Positions 1 through 43,264 of a stretch of DNA of 43,264 nt are shown piece after piece (within the stretch, counting starts at the first letter, position 1; every line of letters starts with the position of its first letter). Made by a program: the position numbers and the translations under genes. The DNA comes from Escherichia phage Minorna. A model generated the notes under the pieces. The model saw only the letters and a list, made by a program, of their open reading frames with translations. It searched no databases and was not told where the DNA came from. The stretch lies in sequence record NC_048172.1. The stretch is one strand, 5' to 3'.

Positions 1-159
1 CGTTGAGGGTGAGGGAGGGCCTCGCGTGAGTATAACAAATTTCGAGTTCAGGTATACACCTGCGCAGGGGAGAAGCCCCTGGGATGTTCCAGGAGCTTCT
101 CTTGTACCTACTTGCAGCCACTAGAGAGTATCCGTGCACTCTAGGTGTCAGTAATATAA

Positions 160-7221: not shown

Positions 7222-10200
7222 TTAATCGTCTCCGAAGTTATTGATGATAGCTCGCGTAGGCGCGAATTCCTGGATTAACGGGACCTGCTTAGTGAAGGTC
7301 TGGATATCCATATCCCCAGTAGCCAGGGCTTGCACCGCACCCAACAGCCCGGTGACGTAGCCCATAGACGCCAGAGAATGACGCGGAGAGTCCCCAGTGA
7401 AGATATCCTGCAGAAGCGAGATACCACCGATGGCACTCATACCCATAACCGATTCAGCGATAAGCTTTTGAGTGTCGACCTCTTTGCCGTCCATACCGTG
7501 CTTCGCCATAGTTGCTAGAAGCATCAATGGGAACTGGTATGCCATGATGTGTGCAACCCCAATCCACCCGGCATCATTCAACTCGCGGCGCAGAATCTTG
7601 TTGGTGGCAGCCAGGGCGAAGCTCTGATAGCCGACAATTACTTTGCCGATAGGGTTGAACTGGGCGAAGTGCGAGGTCTCACCGGTACGTACTTGCTGCA
7701 CCAAATAGTCCATCATACGCGTCCCTACCACCTCAACTTGCATTTGCAGGTCCGGCTGGAACATAGCACCAGGATTAGCTTTGTTAGCAGCAATAGCCCG
7801 GTCAGCGATTTCACGAGTAAGACCGAAACGTTCCAGACGCTTAAACGCCTCAGCGTCGCCCTTGAACATCTGCTGGAGCTCGTCCGCTACAATACCTGAG
7901 TTAAGGTTAACCTGCAGTCGATGTACCATACTCATACCGTTGACGTGACGTGCAGCCTGTCCAACGTTCTGGGTGACGTTAAACCAGGAAGCCTGACGGG
8001 TCAGGTCCAAGTTATCGTCTGCGTAGGTATTCAACCAGCGGAAGCGCATCTCCTTCTGGATACTACCACGTAGGATTGCATCCAGACGACTAGCCATATC
8101 CGGAGTGCGAATAGCTACGGAACCTTCTTTAAACCAAGGCTGCTCACGCATACTGCGAAGTACTCGGGACATACCAAACTCTTTCAGCGCTAGGGCGGTG
8201 TCAGTAAGCTGGTACAACCCAGAGTTCTTAAGCATGGTAGCGTTGGCCATGTTACCGGCTGCACGGAGCAGGTCCGGCATCTGCCCGGCGTCGGCTGGTG
8301 CCCCACCTAAGATAAAGTCGATGGTGTCATTAACGGTCTTCTCCCACTTACCTGAATCGGCCAGGGCGTGTTTGGACTCATTAATCATTGTCTCCAGCAC
8401 CTTGAGGTCAGATATCCCAGCATAAGCCATACCCACACGACCTGACATTCGGTTAGTATAACCATGCATAACCTTGGCTACGTCAGTATCCATCAGATCC
8501 TGCATACGCATAACCTGACCGTCTACGATGTACTCTTTGTCCATGTTGAAGCGGGTACGTTGACGGAGGTTCTTAGCAGGCGAGGTGGCGCCAGATTCTC
8601 GGACATTACCTGCCAAGAAACTCTGGATTGCATCCTCGTCTACACCAGCATTACGCATGGCCATAACTACTTCATCATTACCCATACCATTGATGAGTTG
8701 CTTCCACATAGGACCAGAGGCCGAGGAGCGTCCGTTGTAGATACCGTCAACCATCTCCTTAGCAACACGTTGAACGACCTCAGGCTCCATAGATGGATAC
8801 ACATCACGCAGTGCCTGACGGAACAGATCCCGATAATTATCCAAGGAGCGACCATTTGCAATACCTTGGCGCATCTTATCGTAGCTGTACTGGCGAGGGA
8901 AGTAATAGTCCGATTTAATCAGAGTACCGTCATCCACCAGCCCGGCAGCAGTCATGTGATCGTGCCACTTACTGGCCCAGCCGGAGTTGCGGTATGCCTC
9001 TACTAGCGGAACCAAGTCAGAGTCCGGCAGAGGTACCGGGCGTCCATTAACCTCCGCGCTGTATGCAGAGTCCAGGTAACGGCCCAAGCGGGCTTCTAAG
9101 TCAGCGCGAGCTGCTCGGAAGTTGCTACGGTGGAAGAAGCGGTCTATGAAACCTACACCTTTGGCCTTAAGGGCACCAAGTATAGCGTCCTCAACTACAC
9201 TGGCACTAGCGTCCATCTCCAACGTAAGGTTACGCTTGAAGTCCACCACAGACGGTTTACGACCGCCTACAGCAGTAGCGTCAGATACTAGTAAGCGTGC
9301 CAGGTCCTCGCTACCCTCTGCGATGTTATCATACAGGGAGAACATAGTGGCGAACTTGCGCTTAGCAGTGTCCATCATAGCTTGGGCCTTCAAGGCCTCA
9401 TGCTTAACCGATGTATCCGCCAAGTCCTGGAAGGCCTCACTCCGGAAGCTCTGAGCTTGGTCTGCGTAGTCCTTTGCGGTCCACTTGACAGCATCCTCGT
9501 ACGCGTCCAGAACATCCTCCAGAGCGGACCCCTTGGTGCGAATCCCCAGGGCATTCATGATGTACTCACCAATCTGGCGGAGCATACTCCTACCAGTAGG
9601 AGATTGAGTTCTAGAGAGATACTCCACCCACTCAGGGCTATCACCTAGTCCTGCTAACATCTCGTGCACATCGCTTGCGTAGTACTTAAGCTTATCACTG
9701 AGGGTTGAATCAGCTGCTATTGCAGCGCGCACCTCTTCCAGCTTACTAGCAATTTCAGGATTCTGCTTGATGGCTCTGGTGGTGGCAGCGTGAATCAGCT
9801 CGTGCACTGCTACTCGGCTAGTGTCCGCATCCATAGCACGCAGAGCATCCCCGGCAGTAGTCCAGGTACTTCCGTTCGCTTTCTTAGGGGCACGTAAAGA
9901 TATAAAACCCCTATCAGTTGTTGATGCTGGTGAAAATCCGTAGTGACTACGGTTAGAAGAACCGGCCACCAGTTTAAAGTCGATATCCTGTACTGCGTCA
10001 CCCAGGGTGTCCAGGATAGCCTTCTGACCTTTAGATAAGTGTTCAGAGGTCTTGAGGAAACGGACTACGTCCTGCGCTTTCATGTTAACAGCAGCAGTGT
10101 TATTCCGGCGAACTTGGATAGGTTCATCCAGTACCTTAGTGAGTATTGTGTCCCCTTCTCCTACTCCTGTAACATTAGCATCCCTTGCTGTACGAGTTGT

Positions 10201-10920
10201 GGGCGCGTCCGGGTCAAACATAGGCTCACGCCCAGTGCGTGCCTTTGCTGCTGCTTTAGCAGCCTTAGACATATCCCAGAGCTGGTCTAGTCCAGCTACC
10301 CCTGCTACCAGAGCAGTGACTGCCGCAGACTGTCCCAATTGATCTTGTGCATAGACAGCTGTACCTACATCCGCTGCACGGATAGCAGTACGCACTGCTA
10401 AGCCAGCACGACCAGCGATACCCGCCGCTGACATCGGAGCCAGTATAAATGGAGCATCACCAGCCAGTGCACCGGCGAACCCAGCTACCGTGTTATCAGA
10501 CATCTGACGGTCACGGTCACGCTGTTCTAGCATAGCCTGAATGCGATAATTATAATCATCCAAGGACACCGCCCCGTGCAAGTAATCAATCTCTTCCTGA
10601 TTAGGGGTGTAGAGCTTAGCTCTGGAGTCGGTGCTTAGTTGTTTCTTAGCATCAAACCCCTGCTCTGGGATGAATGTTGGGGAGGAGGCCTTTCTAATGG
10701 CTGCAGCTATAATGCTGTTACCAACCCCAGCAGCAAAGCTTTCCCCTGCTGACGTCGCTGGGGTTTTAGCCTGGGCCAGTATAGATGAACGCTGTAGTGC
10801 ATTCAGCCCATCATCTCCTGCGTCATTCCAATCTACGCTTGCAGGCGCAGGTTTAAGTGTTGCGCCCTTAGCAGAATCCTTTTCCTGTGGATTCGGTTCT
10901 TGGTTCAGAAACTGAGCCAT
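7222..10920 (-). CDS. internal virion protein C (T7 gp16-like)
   Basis: 1232-aa ORF, third and largest of three consecutive large ORFs after tail tubular B, matching the gp14-gp15-gp16 order. Confidence 0.75.
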   Translation of the reverse strand: MAQFLNQEPNPQEKDSAKGATLKPAPASVDWNDAGDDGLNALQRSSILAQAKTPATSAGESFAAGVGNSIIAAAIRKASSPTFIPEQGFDAKKQLSTDSRAKLYTPNQEEIDYLHGAVSLDDYNYRIQAMLEQRDRDRQMSDNTVAGFAGALAGDAPFILAPMSAAGIAGRAGLAVRTAIRAADVGTAVYAQDQLGQSAAVTALVAGVAGLDQLWDMSKAAKAAAKARTGREPMFDPDAPTTRTARDANVTGVGEGDTILTKVLDEPIQVRRNNTAAVNMKAQDVVRFLKTSEHLSKGQKAILDTLGDAVQDIDFKLVAGSSNRSHYGFSPASTTDRGFISLRAPKKANGSTWTTAGDALRAMDADTSRVAVHELIHAATTRAIKQNPEIASKLEEVRAAIAADSTLSDKLKYYASDVHEMLAGLGDSPEWVEYLSRTQSPTGRSMLRQIGEYIMNALGIRTKGSALEDVLDAYEDAVKWTAKDYADQAQSFRSEAFQDLADTSVKHEALKAQAMMDTAKRKFATMFSLYDNIAEGSEDLARLLVSDATAVGGRKPSVVDFKRNLTLEMDASASVVEDAILGALKAKGVGFIDRFFHRSNFRAARADLEARLGRYLDSAYSAEVNGRPVPLPDSDLVPLVEAYRNSGWASKWHDHMTAAGLVDDGTLIKSDYYFPRQYSYDKMRQGIANGRSLDNYRDLFRQALRDVYPSMEPEVVQRVAKEMVDGIYNGRSSASGPMWKQLINGMGNDEVVMAMRNAGVDEDAIQSFLAGNVRESGATSPAKNLRQRTRFNMDKEYIVDGQVMRMQDLMDTDVAKVMHGYTNRMSGRVGMAYAGISDLKVLETMINESKHALADSGKWEKTVNDTIDFILGGAPADAGQMPDLLRAAGNMANATMLKNSGLYQLTDTALALKEFGMSRVLRSMREQPWFKEGSVAIRTPDMASRLDAILRGSIQKEMRFRWLNTYADDNLDLTRQASWFNVTQNVGQAARHVNGMSMVHRLQVNLNSGIVADELQQMFKGDAEAFKRLERFGLTREIADRAIAANKANPGAMFQPDLQMQVEVVGTRMMDYLVQQVRTGETSHFAQFNPIGKVIVGYQSFALAATNKILRRELNDAGWIGVAHIMAYQFPLMLLATMAKHGMDGKEVDTQKLIAESVMGMSAIGGISLLQDIFTGDSPRHSLASMGYVTGLLGAVQALATGDMDIQTFTKQVPLIQEFAPTRAIINNFGDD

Positions 10921-21735: not shown

Positions 21736-21758
21736 TCCTACTCCTGTAACATTAAATT

Positions 21759-30385: not shown

Positions 30386-30546
30386 TTGGTATCCTCTTAT
30401 GTTGTTCCTACTCGTATCACATTAATTCTCGGTAAATCACAGAATCAAGCCAGAGTCAACAAATAATTTTATTTAATTATCTGCTTGACCCCAGCTAATT
30501 CTCGTGTTACCCTAACCCCCTACACCGCCCAAGGGTCCACCTATCA

Positions 30547-40720: not shown

Positions 40721-40855
40721 CTTACCATTATACGTATTCTCCCAATCCCTCATAGTGCCACCTGTTATGGCGGCCTCGGGTTGGCACATCAAAGGCGTCA
40801 GAGTCGTTAGCTGCCGGAATCAGTGCTCACCACTTGATAGCTTGAATCTTATAAA

Positions 40856-41431
40856 TCATGCCGCTACCTTCAAAGTTGCATCCAGCACAGCGCGTACATC
40901 CACGCCCTGACTGATAAGCATAGATACCAAATCAGAGTCGCTCACCCCAGTTTCTTTAGCCTTCTTGATAGCGTTTTTAACGCGCCCCAGAGCTTGCAGA
41001 CGCACTGCATCGGCATCAAGGGCATCATTCTTCACCTGCTCTGCTTCGGCGTTGTACAGGGCCATACAAGCGCTATAGAAGCTGGCCACAATCACTTCAC
41101 GGCCTTGCTTGTCAGCTTGTTTATAGTCCAAACGCATAGTGTCCAGTTCAATGCCCAGCTTTTCAGCCGACGCATAGCACTTTTTAGCGTGGAATTCGTA
41201 CTTGCCCGATTCCTTGTTGAACTTGATAGGCAGCAGTGTACGCAGCACCATATCGAAATCGGCGGCATCACTGCGCTGCATATCCGTCGCCCAAGAAACG
41301 TTGCTACTAATCAGGCCGTGGAACAGAGCGCTGATAGTAATATTGCGTTTTGCTTCCACTACATCGCCCAGCGCCTTGCGAATGCTGCCAGCAGCGGTTA
41401 ATTTGAATACTCTACCAGTTGAATGAGTCAT
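40856..41431 (-). CDS. hypothetical early protein (191 aa)
   Basis: Second gene of the early region; GAGGT 5 nt upstream of the ATG; no recognisable motif. Confidence 0.55.
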   Translation of the reverse strand: MTHSTGRVFKLTAAGSIRKALGDVVEAKRNITISALFHGLISSNVSWATDMQRSDAADFDMVLRTLLPIKFNKESGKYEFHAKKCYASAEKLGIELDTMRLDYKQADKQGREVIVASFYSACMALYNAEAEQVKNDALDADAVRLQALGRVKNAIKKAKETGVSDSDLVSMLISQGVDVRAVLDATLKVAA

Positions 41432-41466
41432 GATGCACCTCTTTGATTGGTTGTTTAGGTAATTAC

Positions 41467-41496
41467 TTCACATAGCACCCCATAGGATGCTATAGG
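41467..41496 (-). promoter_or_regulatory. conserved dyad element, copy 2 (atagca-N10-tgctat)
   Basis: Plus strand ttcacatagcaccccataggatgctatagg; relative to copy 1 the stem changes G/C to A/T at paired positions; 36 nt upstream of the ATG at 41431. Confidence 0.5.
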
Positions 41497-41502
41497 CTGT
41501 AA

Positions 41503-41718
41503 TTAGCGTCCGAACTGCCCAGCAGTATACCAGCCTTGTGGCACCTTGCTACTTCCCCTTGTTTTGGTCTTACCGCGTACATTCGTACTAAACGTCGCAG
41601 ATTGCTTCATCCGCATATACCCAGCACGATTCAGCGCATCCCGGCGTTTTCTCAATTCAGGACCGGATAACTTCTCGAGTCCAGCGAACTGTTGTGCTAA
41701 CTTCTCACGATATTTCAT
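41503..41718 (-). CDS. first early gene, small basic protein (71 aa)
   Basis: ATG 41718 preceded by GAGGAGG; the track ORF (41733) begins at an in-frame TTG lying inside the SD, so it is over-extended. Confidence 0.5.
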   Translation of the reverse strand: MKYREKLAQQFAGLEKLSGPELRKRRDALNRAGYMRMKQSATFSTNVRGKTKTRGSSKVPQGWYTAGQFGR

Positions 41719-42266
41719 TGTGTACCTCCTCAAAGTTAATGATTAACGCCCTAGCAGTATTTAGCAGGACGCTAATTCTTAACCTTGTTGCCCACTGCAC
41801 TACCGTGGAACCTGTGGTTCAGGTCTCGGCGCTATTCTTTTAAGGGGCAGCGCCTCAGCGCCCCAGCCGTTTGTCATCTCGGCCCTTGATGTTACTTCTG
41901 AACTGCACTGATTATCTAGGATTGGTCGTCATCGTACCAGTCAAGGTACTGGGCCTCCCCGCAAATCAGCTTACTACGCCTTGCTTGCTTACTAAGTTAC
42001 TGCTTATCGCTCAGCTTGTCAATCACTTTCTTTCGTTCGGTCATCCGGTGCTTCATACGCCACCGGCAGCTACTGCGTGGGCTTTCCCTCCCTCCCGAAC
42101 TACTTTGATTTGTTTACCGTGTCCGCATACTCCGGTAAACGGTGCTTTCCCTAGCGGGTATCCGGCAGGCTTCGCGGTTCCTATCCGTTCCCCCTTTGGC
42201 GCGTCCTTGTATCACTCCCCGCCGTGTCGCGCCTTCCGTTGCGCCTCCTCCGTATTGCTTGGATTC

Positions 42267-42295
42267 AATCTAGCCTATGTTCTTCGCGGTGTCAA
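42267..42295 (-). promoter_or_regulatory. candidate sigma70-type early promoter (TTGACA-N17-TAGATT on the minus strand)
   Basis: Plus-strand tgtcaa at 42290-42295 and aatcta at 42267-42272; correctly oriented and spaced for minus-strand transcription toward the early genes. By-eye hexamer match only. Confidence 0.25.
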
Positions 42296-42499
42296 CCCTT
42301 TTTGTTGAGTATATAACCCTTCACACTATCTAGCCTTAATCCGGCGGAGTCTCCCGACTCTGCCCCGTTCAGCGCCTCAGCGCCTCCCGGTGATTGAACT
42401 ATAGCGCCAATAAACCAAAGGAAGCAAGCACTTTTTTAAACTTTTTATCACTAGGAGCAAAAAGGGTAAGCAGGGCAATGATTTAGCCAATGCCTCCAT

Positions 42500-42549
42500 T
42501 CTAGGGATAGCTCTAGGGATAGCCCAATACTAGCCAATACTAACTAATA
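42500..42549. repeat. tandem 12-mer tctagggatagc x2 followed by ccaatacta(g/a)-type tandem units
   Basis: Plus strand tctagggatagctctagggatagc then ccaatactagccaatactaactaatac. Confidence 0.85.
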
Positions 42550-42771
42550 CCATTTAACGCTACACAAAGCAGAGCGCAGTGACGTAACGGGAGTGGAGTC
42601 ACGGAGCGATGCGGTGACTGTGTAGGTAATGCTTACTCCCTACGGTCGTAATATAGGGCATTACTAGGGGATACTAGTGAATAGTAGTAAGTAGTATGTA
42701 TCTAGTGCCCTAAAACCCTCCTACTCGTGTAACATCATTTCTAAATAGCTTTCGAATGAAAGTAAGGGGAA

Positions 42772-42792
42772 AGGGATAGCTCTAGGGATAGC
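42772..42792. repeat. second copy of the gggatagc-tctagggatagc repeat
   Basis: Plus strand agggatagctctagggatagc, about 270 nt from the first copy. Confidence 0.85.
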
Positions 42793-42879
42793 AAAGGATA
42801 ACGCTAGGTGGCGGATAGTGGAAGTGCGCCCTAGTGGGGAGCGCGCAGCGTAGCATATAATCGGCACAATGTAAAGCAC

Positions 42880-42913
42880 TAGAGATAACCCTAGAGATAG
42901 CTCTAGAGATAGC
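42880..42913. repeat. variant repeat ctagagataaccctagagatagctctagagatagc
   Basis: Same CTAG-(G/A)GATA(G/A)C unit family with G to A variants; agagataaccctag recurs at 43051-43064. Confidence 0.85.
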
Positions 42914-43050
42914 ATATAGACGCACTAGCAGCGCACTGGGCGGCCCACTCGGCACATACTATGGCCCACTACTGGCCCACTGGGCGGCCCGCTAGAGGTC
43001 CGCAAAATAAGCAAGGCAGAGCGCACCTCTACGCCCCACAGAGAGCACGC

Positions 43051-43091
43051 AGAGATAACCCTAGTGCCCCTCAGTGCCTCCCTAGTGCCTC
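43051..43091. repeat. tandem ccctagtgcc-like units
   Basis: Plus strand agagataaccctagtgcccctcagtgcctccctagtgcctc. Confidence 0.8.
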
Positions 43092-43187
43092 TACGAGAGG
43101 CGCATAGTGATAGGCATAGGGTTACCCTAGTGATAGCCATTAAGGCGCGCAGGGAGCTTCTGCGGCCCTCCTAGAGCGCCCTCAGCT

Positions 43188-43211
43188 GGCCATCTAGACG
43201 TCTAGACGGCC
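43188..43211. repeat. 24-bp near-perfect palindrome (ggccatctagacgtctagacggcc) at the extreme end
   Basis: Perfect 12-bp core ctagacgtctag at 43194-43205; one mismatch in the outer arms; immediately followed by a C13 homopolymer (43210-43222) and a ccccc-tat-gggggg inverted repeat (43241-43254). Confidence 0.85.
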
Positions 43212-43264
43212 CCCCCCCCCCCTCCTTTATACGCTAGGCACCCCCTATGGGGGGCAATTGGGCG

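Follow-up and report, generated by a model that had tools for sequence, protein, structure and literature searches.

The flagged stretch (42480-43264) lies at the end of the 43,264-nt window analysed here, which is the whole sequence record NC_048172.1 of Escherichia phage Minorna, and is in our view the non-coding left-end region of a KP34-like podophage (genus Drulisvirus, family Autographiviridae), in which the terminal repeat was collapsed and the contig was opened 15 nt off the true end (probability about 0.85). For 244 KP34-like phages, the left end can be aligned with this region end to end, at 72-85% identity; 156 of these phage records span 80% or more of its length, and almost all of the 244 belong to Drulisvirus of Klebsiella, Escherichia or Shigella. 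The records closest to the Minorna left end are those of Escherichia phages EC22.5-2 and AV102, and the left ends of KP34 (GQ413938), fHe-Kpn01 (MN380459), AttikonH1 (PP974225) and Kp_Pokalde_001 (MW590329) are homologous over the whole region. All long open reading frames of the window are found on the minus strand and, because the genes run on this strand, the window end corresponds to the genomic left end; the window minus strand is taken as the forward genome strand. The original prediction for this stretch, namely the left end of a T7-family phage with a terminal repeat and short repeat arrays, is upheld by the alignments of the relatives: the comparison with related termini that it had proposed gave 244 matching left ends and aligned annotated repeat ends, and each element that it had listed was found where it had been placed, the elements being jointly above chance. 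Judged from these alignments, the region is real, conserved and ordinary for the KP34-like group, with features that are not peculiar to Minorna. Those discussed below are, in window coordinates:

1-15, minus strand: the 15 nt at the outer end of the direct terminal repeat (reverse complement CCCTCACCCTCAACG), from the KP34 and AV102 alignments
42267-42295, minus strand: sigma-70 early promoter TTGACA-N17-TAGATT, outside the flagged range (forward nt 985-1013)
42500-42550, plus strand: array 3, two copies of TCTAGGGATAGC followed by 2.7 copies of CCAATACTA(A), the latter at 42524-42550
42665-42700, unstranded: A+T-rich tract with ATAGTAGTAA-like units (GC 0.34-0.38), just downstream of the phage promoter
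42722-42737, minus strand: predicted strong promoter of the KP34-type phage RNA polymerase, TGATGTTACACGAGTA (forward nt 543-558), 15 of 16 positions as in the proven sequence
42772-42807, plus strand: array 2, units (A)GGGATAGC, CTAGGGATAGC and AAGGATAACGCTAG, 35-70 nt upstream of the phage promoter
42812-42884, minus strand: near-invariant 73-nt block, with an identity of 90% or more in 242 of 243 phage records
42875-42914, plus strand: array 1, 3.3 copies of the 12-nt unit CTAGAGATA(G/A)C(C/T), from tandem-repeat and motif counts
43013-43024, minus strand: conserved inner repeat boundary GCGCTC/TGCCTT (forward strand, the slash marking the boundary), where four annotated repeats end
43019-43264, minus strand: the other 246 nt of the direct terminal repeat (predicted length 261 bp), four annotated repeats ending at 43019
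43059-43093, plus strand: short tandem units CCCTAGTGCC(T) inside the terminal repeat, from the tandem-repeat search
43188-43211, unstranded: 24-nt near-palindrome GGCCATCTAGAC/GTCTAGACGGCC, with 11 of 12 pairs
43210-43222, unstranded: C13 homopolymer, read on the forward strand as G13 at nt 58-70 from the end
43241-43254, unstranded: terminal inverted repeat CCCCC-TAT-GGGGGG, on the forward strand CCCCCCATAGGGGG at nt 26-39

The contig end had been treated as a physical end, which has to be corrected, since the true left terminus is predicted to lie 15 nt away, between window bases 15 and 16, with the repeat collapsed to one copy. Position 1 of the KP34 record aligns at this point, and the KP34, Pokalde and AttikonH1 sequences extend 15 nt past the window end with ...CGTTGAGGGTGAGGG, which is the sequence of window bases 1-15. 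The AV102 sequence is contiguous from the window end into the window start, and the unique right end of KP34, terminating in ...CTCACGCGAGGCCCT, matches the window from base 16 on. A second copy of the terminal repeat was searched for in the window and is absent, the single copy being joined as in a concatemer or a circularised assembly, which is what a collapsed assembly would give and in itself no sign of a duplication.

The other limit of the repeat is given by the annotated repeats of KP34 (216 nt), fHe-Kpn01 (222 nt), Kp_Pokalde_001 (247 nt) and AttikonH1 (247 nt), which differ in length and share one end column, corresponding to window position 43019. Of these, only the fHe-Kpn01 termini were established by experiment, with PhageTerm supported by ligation, Sanger sequencing and restriction digests (PMC7291057). 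The conserved flank of this inner boundary runs to about 42999 (TGCCTTGCTTATTTTGCG), the column-conservation profile is high over 42999-43038, and the Pokalde record has a 'concatemer junction' annotated at the same site. We thus predict for Minorna a direct terminal repeat of 261 bp, formed by 43019-43264 plus 1-15, with the right-end cut between 43019 and 43018; it is longer than those of its Drulisvirus relatives (216-247 bp) because of extra short repeats and an 8-nt duplication. Both conserved Drulisvirus termini are present in the window, the outer one (CCCTCACCCT...) between 15 and 16 and the inner one, GCGCTC/TGCCTT, between 43019 and 43018, and we infer that Minorna DNA is cut at these sites. 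In the genome annotation, the opening point of the contig should be moved 15 nt further on and the repeat, of about 261 bp, entered twice, after which the phage promoter and the repeat boundaries can be annotated.

Inside the repeat, the C13 tract is the longest homopolymer of the window. It had been suspected of being an artefact of a physical end, a suspicion that does not hold, as a homologous, conserved C-rich tract that varies in length is present in the relatives and the Minorna tract lies 58-70 nt inside the end; its exact length of 13 is provisional. In the relatives the homologous tract reads C9-C15 or CCCC[G/A]CCCCC, and one IMG/VR locus (L028) has identical flanks around C12. Two further IMG/VR loci (L014 and L031) were left out as probable misassemblies, with inflated C runs and unrelated upstream sequence. 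The near-palindrome next to it rests on two exact tandem copies of the 8-mer TCTAGACG (43193-43208) and is the longest palindrome of the window with at most one mismatch, a length reached in one of 300 shuffles of the 785-nt region. It is found also in two IMG/VR loci (L028 and L018) and in imperfect form in EC22.5-2 and AV102, and among the left ends compared it is absent from KP34, Pokalde and AttikonH1.

That the C13 tract, the palindrome and the arrays are all assembly or sequencing artefacts at a contig end seems to us extremely improbable. Such an origin would fit two IMG/VR contigs that break at the C tract with inflated runs of C16-C20, a terminal hairpin with one G more in Minorna than in every relative, and the one collapsed repeat copy of the contig; however, all elements align with independently sequenced relatives, the C tract lies 42-54 nt inside the contig end, and an identical palindrome with C12 is present in L028, which is only 83% identical overall.

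The palindrome contains AGACGTCT, a perfect met box. A MetJ-operator reading was considered and set aside as coincidence, as this box is found in few lineages only and is flanked by degenerate boxes. Folding of the palindrome, the terminal hairpin, the conserved block and the inner boundary as single-strand DNA gave nothing exceptional, with z-scores of -0.4 to -2.3 for the first three, and a structural RNA or stable cruciform was dropped because the folds are not unusually stable. Rfam covariance models gave no match on either strand of 40800-43264 at E-values up to 1.

Further inward, the sequence TGATGTTACACGAGTA at 42737-42722 is predicted to be a promoter of the phage RNA polymerase. The proven promoter of the KP34 RNA polymerase is T(A/G)ATGTTACAGGAGTA (Lu et al. 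2019, PMC6834552), from which the Minorna sequence differs by one base, a C instead of G at position 10. It is the counterpart of KP34 promoter S2 (nt 475-490, confirmed in the KP34 sequence), with the same 5' TG variant. Copies of the KP34-type promoter are found in the window at 42737, 21754, 10177 and 30424, all on the minus strand; those at 21754 and 10177 are exact, and that at 30424 shares the C at position 10. The phage RNA polymerase promoter was not mentioned in the original prediction. A tandem array was identified by TRF at 42671-42696, within the A+T-rich tract.

Strong host promoters had also been expected in the flagged range. A standard scan detected none within 42480-43264, and the recognised sigma-70 promoter lies outside it, at 42295-42267, where the sequence is the same as that of the published host promoter of the KP34 group, TTGACACCGCGAAGAACATAAGCTAGATT (PMC4411677). 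The 'phage promoter' motif of Eriksson et al., present at 41496-41467 and likewise outside the flagged region, was discarded, being inactive with the KP34 polymerase.

The 73-nt block is near-invariant: its mean identity is 0.958, whereas 70-nt windows have a median of 0.81. Within it lies a candidate sigma-70 promoter of the extended -10 type (TTTACA, a 17-nt spacer ending in TGC, and TACGCT, from 42875 to 42847), and the few variable positions of the block lie in the spacer of this candidate. A leftward sigma-70 promoter with a perfect TATAAT (42856-42861), resembling T7 A0, was rejected, having no usable -35 element and variable block positions inside the hexamer; the rightward TTTACA/TGcTACGCT candidate appears to fit better than this leftward one. 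The block had not been listed before.

It is very unlikely that the region instead encodes small proteins, as in the AttikonH1 record, where four short ORFs (1-4) are annotated here. Short ORFs do occur in Minorna, for example a minus-strand frame of 64 aa at 42721-42915, but among relatives the open frames over the conserved block vary in frame and extent, the predicted peptides are translated repeats, and most records have no annotation here.

We also considered that the phage promoter, the A+T-rich tract and the conserved block might together form a replication origin, similar to the secondary origin of T7 at phiOL, with the repeats serving this origin. T7 phiOL, which has origin activity, occupies an equivalent position, and in Minorna a promoter of the proven type is directly followed by a tract of 34-38% GC, with the near-invariant block 75-150 nt upstream. 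However, no origin has been mapped in any Drulisvirus, and the GC-skew profile is uninformative at this scale, leaving positional analogy alone, so that we consider an origin at this site quite unlikely.

Three arrays of short CTAG-containing units are interspersed with these elements. CTAG is the most enriched tetranucleotide of the region, with 23 copies in 42300-43264 (23.8 per kb) versus 2.8 per kb elsewhere, and the spacing between CTAG sites peaks at 10-12, 22, 32-34 and 44-46 nt. The unit CTAGRGATARC has six exact copies, all on the plus strand (42501, 42513, 42782, 42879, 42891 and 42903), and a copy with one mismatch at 43127; allowing up to one mismatch, the whole window has 10 matches, with 2.9 expected, a number reached in none of 100 shuffles. 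Of the CTAG tandem proposed at 42772, the second unit does carry CTAG, and the first one reads GAAAGGGATAGC. The arrays had been considered unusual, a view that the relatives contradict, as CTAG enrichment and units in one orientation recur in nearly all of 26 related left ends, where the units are found in conserved places and in variable copy number (the exceptions being one left end with a single reverse-strand match and one without an exact unit). Array 1 borders the TTTACA hexamer in the conserved block on its upstream side and varies in copy number among relatives, and the CCCTAGTGCC(T) stretch inside the terminal repeat is also variable and indel-rich.

The arrays most likely act, by analogy with T7, as phased protein-binding or bendable DNA, with sites about one helical turn apart, that would aid end processing, packaging or ejection, and a role of the repeats in concatemer processing or packaging is plausible. 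For the CCTAAAG arrays of T7 such a role has been proposed and, to our knowledge, never proven.

The variation in copy number amid indel-rich stretches also fits slippage-prone DNA of little function. The arrays would then be filler whose sequence as such has no specific role, with selection acting only on leader length, such that the first ~1 kb entering the cell carries the promoters; we regard this as doubtful. Close relatives do differ in copy number and spacing, with many indels, and other Autographiviridae have unrelated short repeats at this place (CTAAAG in T7, other units in phiKMV and SP6). Against mere filler, the motif, its orientation and its approximate position are kept among relatives that are only ~73% identical overall, CTAG is 6-fold above the expectation from composition, which is beyond mere release from avoidance, and TATC-N-CTAG occurs seven times here and is absent from the remaining 42 kb of that strand.

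The CTAG-GATAGC arrays could also be operator-like sites for a host or phage regulator of the adjacent promoters, rather than packaging or processing elements. Every array sits just upstream of a promoter-like element, with array 1 abutting TTTACA, array 2 located 35-70 nt upstream of the phage promoter, and array 3 ~22 nt upstream of TTGCCC, which had been predicted to be a host promoter in phage SU552A, and the units are tandem, in a single orientation and spaced by 12 nt. This regulatory role is nevertheless unlikely: no DNA-binding protein of such specificity has been identified, the third 'promoter' (TTGCCC) has no -10 element in the Minorna window, the heterogeneous flanks of CTAG argue against a single sequence-specific binder, and similar CTAG-rich repeats are found inside the terminal repeat, far from promoters.

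From the end inward, the left end starts with the predicted 261-bp repeat, which contains the family-wide motif CCCCCCATAGGGGG (nt 26-39), a G/C homopolymer that differs in length among relatives, and short CTAG-containing repeats that are also variable. It is followed by the boundary GCGCTC/TGCCTT, at which the right genome end would leave the concatemers. The three one-orientation arrays of 12-nt CTAG-N-GATAGC units, interleaved with the 73-nt block, come next, then the putative phage RNA polymerase promoter with the A+T-rich tract and, at ~985 nt, the host sigma-70 early promoter. As in T7, replication would produce head-to-tail concatemers with one repeat copy per joint, the terminase would cut at both conserved boundaries, packaging would duplicate the repeat, and the left end, packaged last, would enter the cell first and carry the promoters in.

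The order of elements is that of the T7 left end, where the terminal repeat, short-repeat arrays in one orientation, a phage promoter and the host promoters also follow one another within the first ~1 kb. In the T7 record, the terminal repeat spans 1-160, the ATCTGTT pause signal 161-167 and the CTAAAG array 176-333, with phiOL at 405 and A1-A3 at 498-750. The Minorna phage promoter holds the position of phiOL, between the repeat arrays and the host early promoter, whereas the repeat unit is centred on CTAG in Minorna and on CTAAAG in T7. The class II pause signal of T7, ATCTGTT, is absent from the right boundary of the Minorna repeat, which reads GCGCTC/TGCCTTGCTTATTTTG, the Drulisvirus boundary being CTC/TGCCTTGCTTATTTTG where T7 has ATCTGTT, and, unlike in T7, the right flank of the repeat has only 145 nt and no array. 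The terminal repeats of T7 and Minorna share only CCCCCATAGGGGG, located at nt 26-38, and TCAC close to the end. The relationship to T7 is one of organisation and not of sequence-family membership, and because the 13-nt terminal motif is the sole T7 homology, the T7 mechanism is used here as an analogy only; the current understanding of the T7 family is unchanged by the Minorna left end.

In phiKMV, LKA1 and LIMElight, three Autographiviridae whose RNA polymerase gene lies mid-genome, short repeats and host promoters also come after a direct terminal repeat (277-414 bp), and a C-run starts about nt 24-27 off the end; these phages have no alignable sequence with Minorna, and their repeat units and lengths differ. 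With its Drulisvirus relatives, Minorna has in common the outer end, the inner boundary, the terminal motif and the C-rich tract, as well as the phage promoter, the conserved block and the sigma-70 promoter, and it differs from them by one substitution in the promoter and by six G in the terminal hairpin instead of five.

These comparisons provide candidate cutting and recognition sites for a group of phages that are widely used against Klebsiella and E. coli: the 73-nt block, the terminal CCCCCATAGGGGG motif, which is found in T7 too, and the conserved inner boundary. The minimal packaging signals, once known, would help phage engineering and the design of transducing particles. More tentatively, it is possible that Drulisvirus genomes have in the phased, one-orientation CTAG arrays and the 73-nt block a cis-acting module not described so far, serving packaging termination or ejection control, or else as an origin or early-promoter complex to which a specific protein binds, and, separately, that the C-run/ATAGGGGG located ~25 nt from the left end is a terminal recognition signal across Autographiviridae subfamilies, from T7 to KP34. 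We found no literature on the arrays, the terminal motif or the block in Drulisvirus; older T7 packaging papers were outside this search, so we do not claim that the terminal motif is undescribed, and we know of no function assigned to it so far. The terminal inverted repeat is invariant in all relatives, with G5 there and G6 in Minorna. T7 has the identical CCCCCATAGGGGG at nt 26-38, at an equal distance from its left end, and related motifs are found at a matching distance from the end in gh-1, SP6, K1-5, phiKMV and LIMElight, the chance of CCCC[AG]TAGG at that position being ~1e-4 per genome.

The minus strand of the window carries all of its long ORFs, and 244 phage records align with the final 965 nt from end to end. 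Almost all of these are KP34-group phages (Drulisvirus, Slopekvirinae, Autographiviridae) of Klebsiella, Escherichia or Shigella; the nearest are Escherichia phages EC22.5-2 and AV102 (identity ~85%). In records opened at the physical end the match starts at about nt 15 and overlaps the annotated left direct repeat, and thus the window end is the genomic left end in reverse complement. The non-coding, repeat-rich stretch at 42480-43264, for which the original prediction proposed this location, is a typical Drulisvirus left end, one more example of a structure that is already known and has been sequenced in many phages. Every element listed in that prediction was found in the sequence, so the observation is confirmed, while its interpretation holds only in part. 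The terminal repeat is already annotated in GenBank records of relatives, and the host and phage promoters of this left end have been published; what the comparison of left ends yields is a set of annotation corrections and a few conserved candidate cis-elements. The alternatives that the region is an artefact, or that it consists of small ORFs, are poorly supported.

Three relatives, KP34, Kp_Pokalde_001 (Pokalde) and AttikonH1, continue beyond the window end for 15 nt, ...CGTT(G/C)AGGGTGAGGG, that coincide exactly with window 1-15, and in AV102, whose record is opened elsewhere, the window end is continuous with the window start. The sequence past window base 15 corresponds to the unique right end of KP34, before its right repeat, and a second terminal-repeat copy is absent from the window. 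The read-through in relatives and the single repeat copy indicate that the contig is a collapsed, circular-style assembly opening 15 nt off the homologous physical terminus. To be complete, the genome record would have to be re-opened and the ~261-bp repeat entered twice. This length is predicted from one shared alignment column (GCGCTC|TGCCTT, window 43019|43018) that ends four annotated repeats of unlike length (KP34, 216 nt; fHe-Kpn01, 222 nt; Pokalde and AttikonH1, 247 nt each), so that the repeat would comprise 43019-43264 plus 1-15, exceeding those of the relatives because of additional short repeats. The fHe-Kpn01 termini are blunt, as determined by PhageTerm, restriction digests, Sanger sequencing and a ligation assay (PMC7291057). 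When 26 related left ends are compared column by column, the inner-boundary stretch (42999-43038) proves well conserved; in the Pokalde record it carries the label 'concatemer junction'. The interval separating the stop of the tailspike gene from the terminal repeat contains, at window 40-80, a stem-loop that reads CAGGGG-CTTCT-CCCCTG on the forward strand (the genome read from its predicted left end, i.e. the window minus strand), with no T-run after it and kept in AV102.

The CCCCC-TAT-GGGGG(G) inverted repeat is invariant across the KP34 group and reads CCCCCCATAGGGGG at forward nt 26-39. An identical CCCCCATAGGGGG occupies nt 26-38 of T7, and related motifs lie equally far from the end in gh-1 (CCCCCGTAGGGG, at 27), SP6 and K1-5 (TCCCCATAGGGT, about 27-28), LIMElight (CCCCATCGGGG, about 25) and phiKMV (CCCCCGTAGG, at 26). 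The chance of CCCC[AG]TAGG at that position is ~1e-4 per genome. That the motif keeps this position in several subfamilies is independent support for where the end is placed, and suggests that the motif may function in end recognition. The hairpin has G6 in the window (43249-43254) versus G5 in every relative examined, a comparison in which the IMG/VR search pattern itself demanded five G and seven BLAST-derived relatives were chosen without that condition; the sixth G could be a true variant or a homopolymer miscall.

The C13 tract (43210-43222), the longest homopolymer of the window, had been named as a possible end artefact. The tract is real, since all relatives have a counterpart (C9 to C15, or CCCC[G/A]CCCCC), including locus L028, 83% identical overall, with the same flanks and palindrome but C12; its exact length is provisional, since two metagenomic contigs break inside it with C16-C20. 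In T7-like Yersinia phages, poly-C stretches of variable length also occur within terminal repeats (PMC5923468). The two broken IMG/VR contigs (L014, 13180-13272; L031, 12080-12145) end at the inflated poly-C with unrelated sequence upstream, and L014 also contains the terminal motif in inverted orientation; both probably result from misassembly that started at the homopolymer. The palindrome (43188-43211, 11/12 pairs) is based on an exact tandem of TCTAGACG and is the longest in the window at ≤1 mismatch; when the region was shuffled 300 times, only one shuffle reached this length. Only some lineages have it (the window, L028 and the IMG/VR locus L018); in EC22.5-2 and AV102 it is imperfect, and KP34, Pokalde and AttikonH1 lack it. 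Its centre (43196-43203), AGACGTCT, matches the MetJ 'met box' consensus, with degenerate neighbouring boxes (5/8 and 6/8 matches); as the duplication is confined to few lineages, the likeness is probably a coincidence.

Across the 26 left ends, conserved blocks alternate with variable, indel-rich repeat arrays. Short-repeat units and promoters of the window are as follows:

42524-42550, CCAATACTA(A) units
43059-43093, CCCTAGTGCC(T) units, inside the terminal repeat
42295-42267, recognised sigma-70 host promoter, TTGACA-N17-TAGATT
10162-10177, minus (coding) strand, KP34-type phage polymerase promoter by sequence match
21739-21754, minus (coding) strand, the same
30409-30424, minus (coding) strand, the same

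The recognised host promoter lies outside the flagged range. A phage promoter that had been overlooked, TGATGTTACACGAGTA (42737-42722, minus strand), sits in a conserved block, and a stretch of 34-38% GC comes directly after it. Of the 16 bases of the promoter, 15 agree with T(A/G)ATGTTACAGGAGTA, the strong promoter of KP34 RNA polymerase, proven by in vitro transcription and 5'-RACE, with a copy at KP34 nt 475-490 (PMC6834552) that we confirmed in the KP34 sequence; from this match we infer that it is active. The copy at 30424 is the variant TAATGTGATACGAGTA, with the same C as the left-end copy, and the one at 10177 lies within a 1232-aa ORF (7222-10920). The 73-nt block at 42812-42884 shows at least 90% identity in 242 of 243 records, with a mean identity of 0.958 versus a median of 0.81 for 70-nt windows over 15 kb of comparable sequence. 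It contains a sigma-70-like candidate with an extended -10 (TTTACA, a 17-nt spacer ending TGC, TACGCT), which a standard promoter scan did not report, and the few variable positions of the block fall in its spacer.

CTAGRGATARC occurs in six exact copies, on the plus strand only (42501, 42513, 42782, 42879, 42891 and 42903), with a one-mismatch copy at 43127; allowing ≤1 mismatch, the whole window has 10 against 2.9 expected, a number reached in 0 of 100 shuffles. No tetranucleotide is as enriched as CTAG (23.8 per kb in 42300-43264 versus 2.8 elsewhere), and TATC-N-CTAG on the forward strand occurs 7 times in the left end versus 0 in the other 42 kb. These arrays had been supposed unusual but are not: in nearly all of the 26 relatives the units recur in one orientation and as one to three copies at each of three roughly corresponding places, the exceptions being one relative with a single reverse-strand match and one without an exact unit. 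Distances between CTAGs, pooled over relatives whose counts are not independent since the sequences are related, peak at 10-12, 22, 32-34 and 44-46 nt, about one helical turn; the flanking bases are otherwise heterogeneous. In rival, less likely readings, the arrays might be slippage-prone filler of which length alone matters, or operator-like sites for a regulator of the neighbouring promoters, consistent with the position of every array directly upstream of a promoter-like element. No paper on the cross-subfamily terminal motif, the 73-nt block or the CTAG arrays of Drulisvirus came up in a literature search whose scope did not extend to the classic T7 packaging papers.

The elements follow each other as they do in T7, by both its annotation and its sequence, where the terminal repeat (1-160) is followed by a CTAAAG array in one orientation (176-333), the phage promoter phiOL (405) and the A1-A3 host promoters (498-750); a further rival reading, also less likely, makes the arrays a component of an origin like phiOL. 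At the T7 junction the polymerase-lysozyme complex pauses, contacts terminase proteins and starts maturation (PMC3276506). ATCTGTT, the class II pause signal that T7 has at 161-167, is missing from the repeat boundary of the window, so this feature is not shared. By analogy with T7, concatemers would be cut at both conserved boundaries and the terminal repeat duplicated in the course of packaging, the left end would be the first part out of the capsid, carrying the promoters into the cell, and in the most likely reading one of these steps would use the arrays as phased protein-binding or bendable DNA.

Beyond the host promoter, a leader of ~530 nt (41733-42267, minus strand), rich in purines on the coding strand and with no convincing gene, leads to the first conserved small ORF (41503-41733); it contains a second sigma-70-like site, TTGACA-N17-TAACTT (42022-41994), and the 145-aa ORF that runs the other way (41871-42308) seems spurious. 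Further on, the motif CCTATAGCATCCTATGGGGTGCTATGTGAA (41467-41496, minus strand) is among the most conserved 70-nt windows (identity 0.969). Once predicted as a KP34-group phage promoter, it was then shown to be inactive with KP34 polymerase (PMC6834552); Eriksson et al. regarded it as a possible nick site, and its core ...ATGGGGTGCTA resembles the terminal ...ATAGGGGGTGCCTA.
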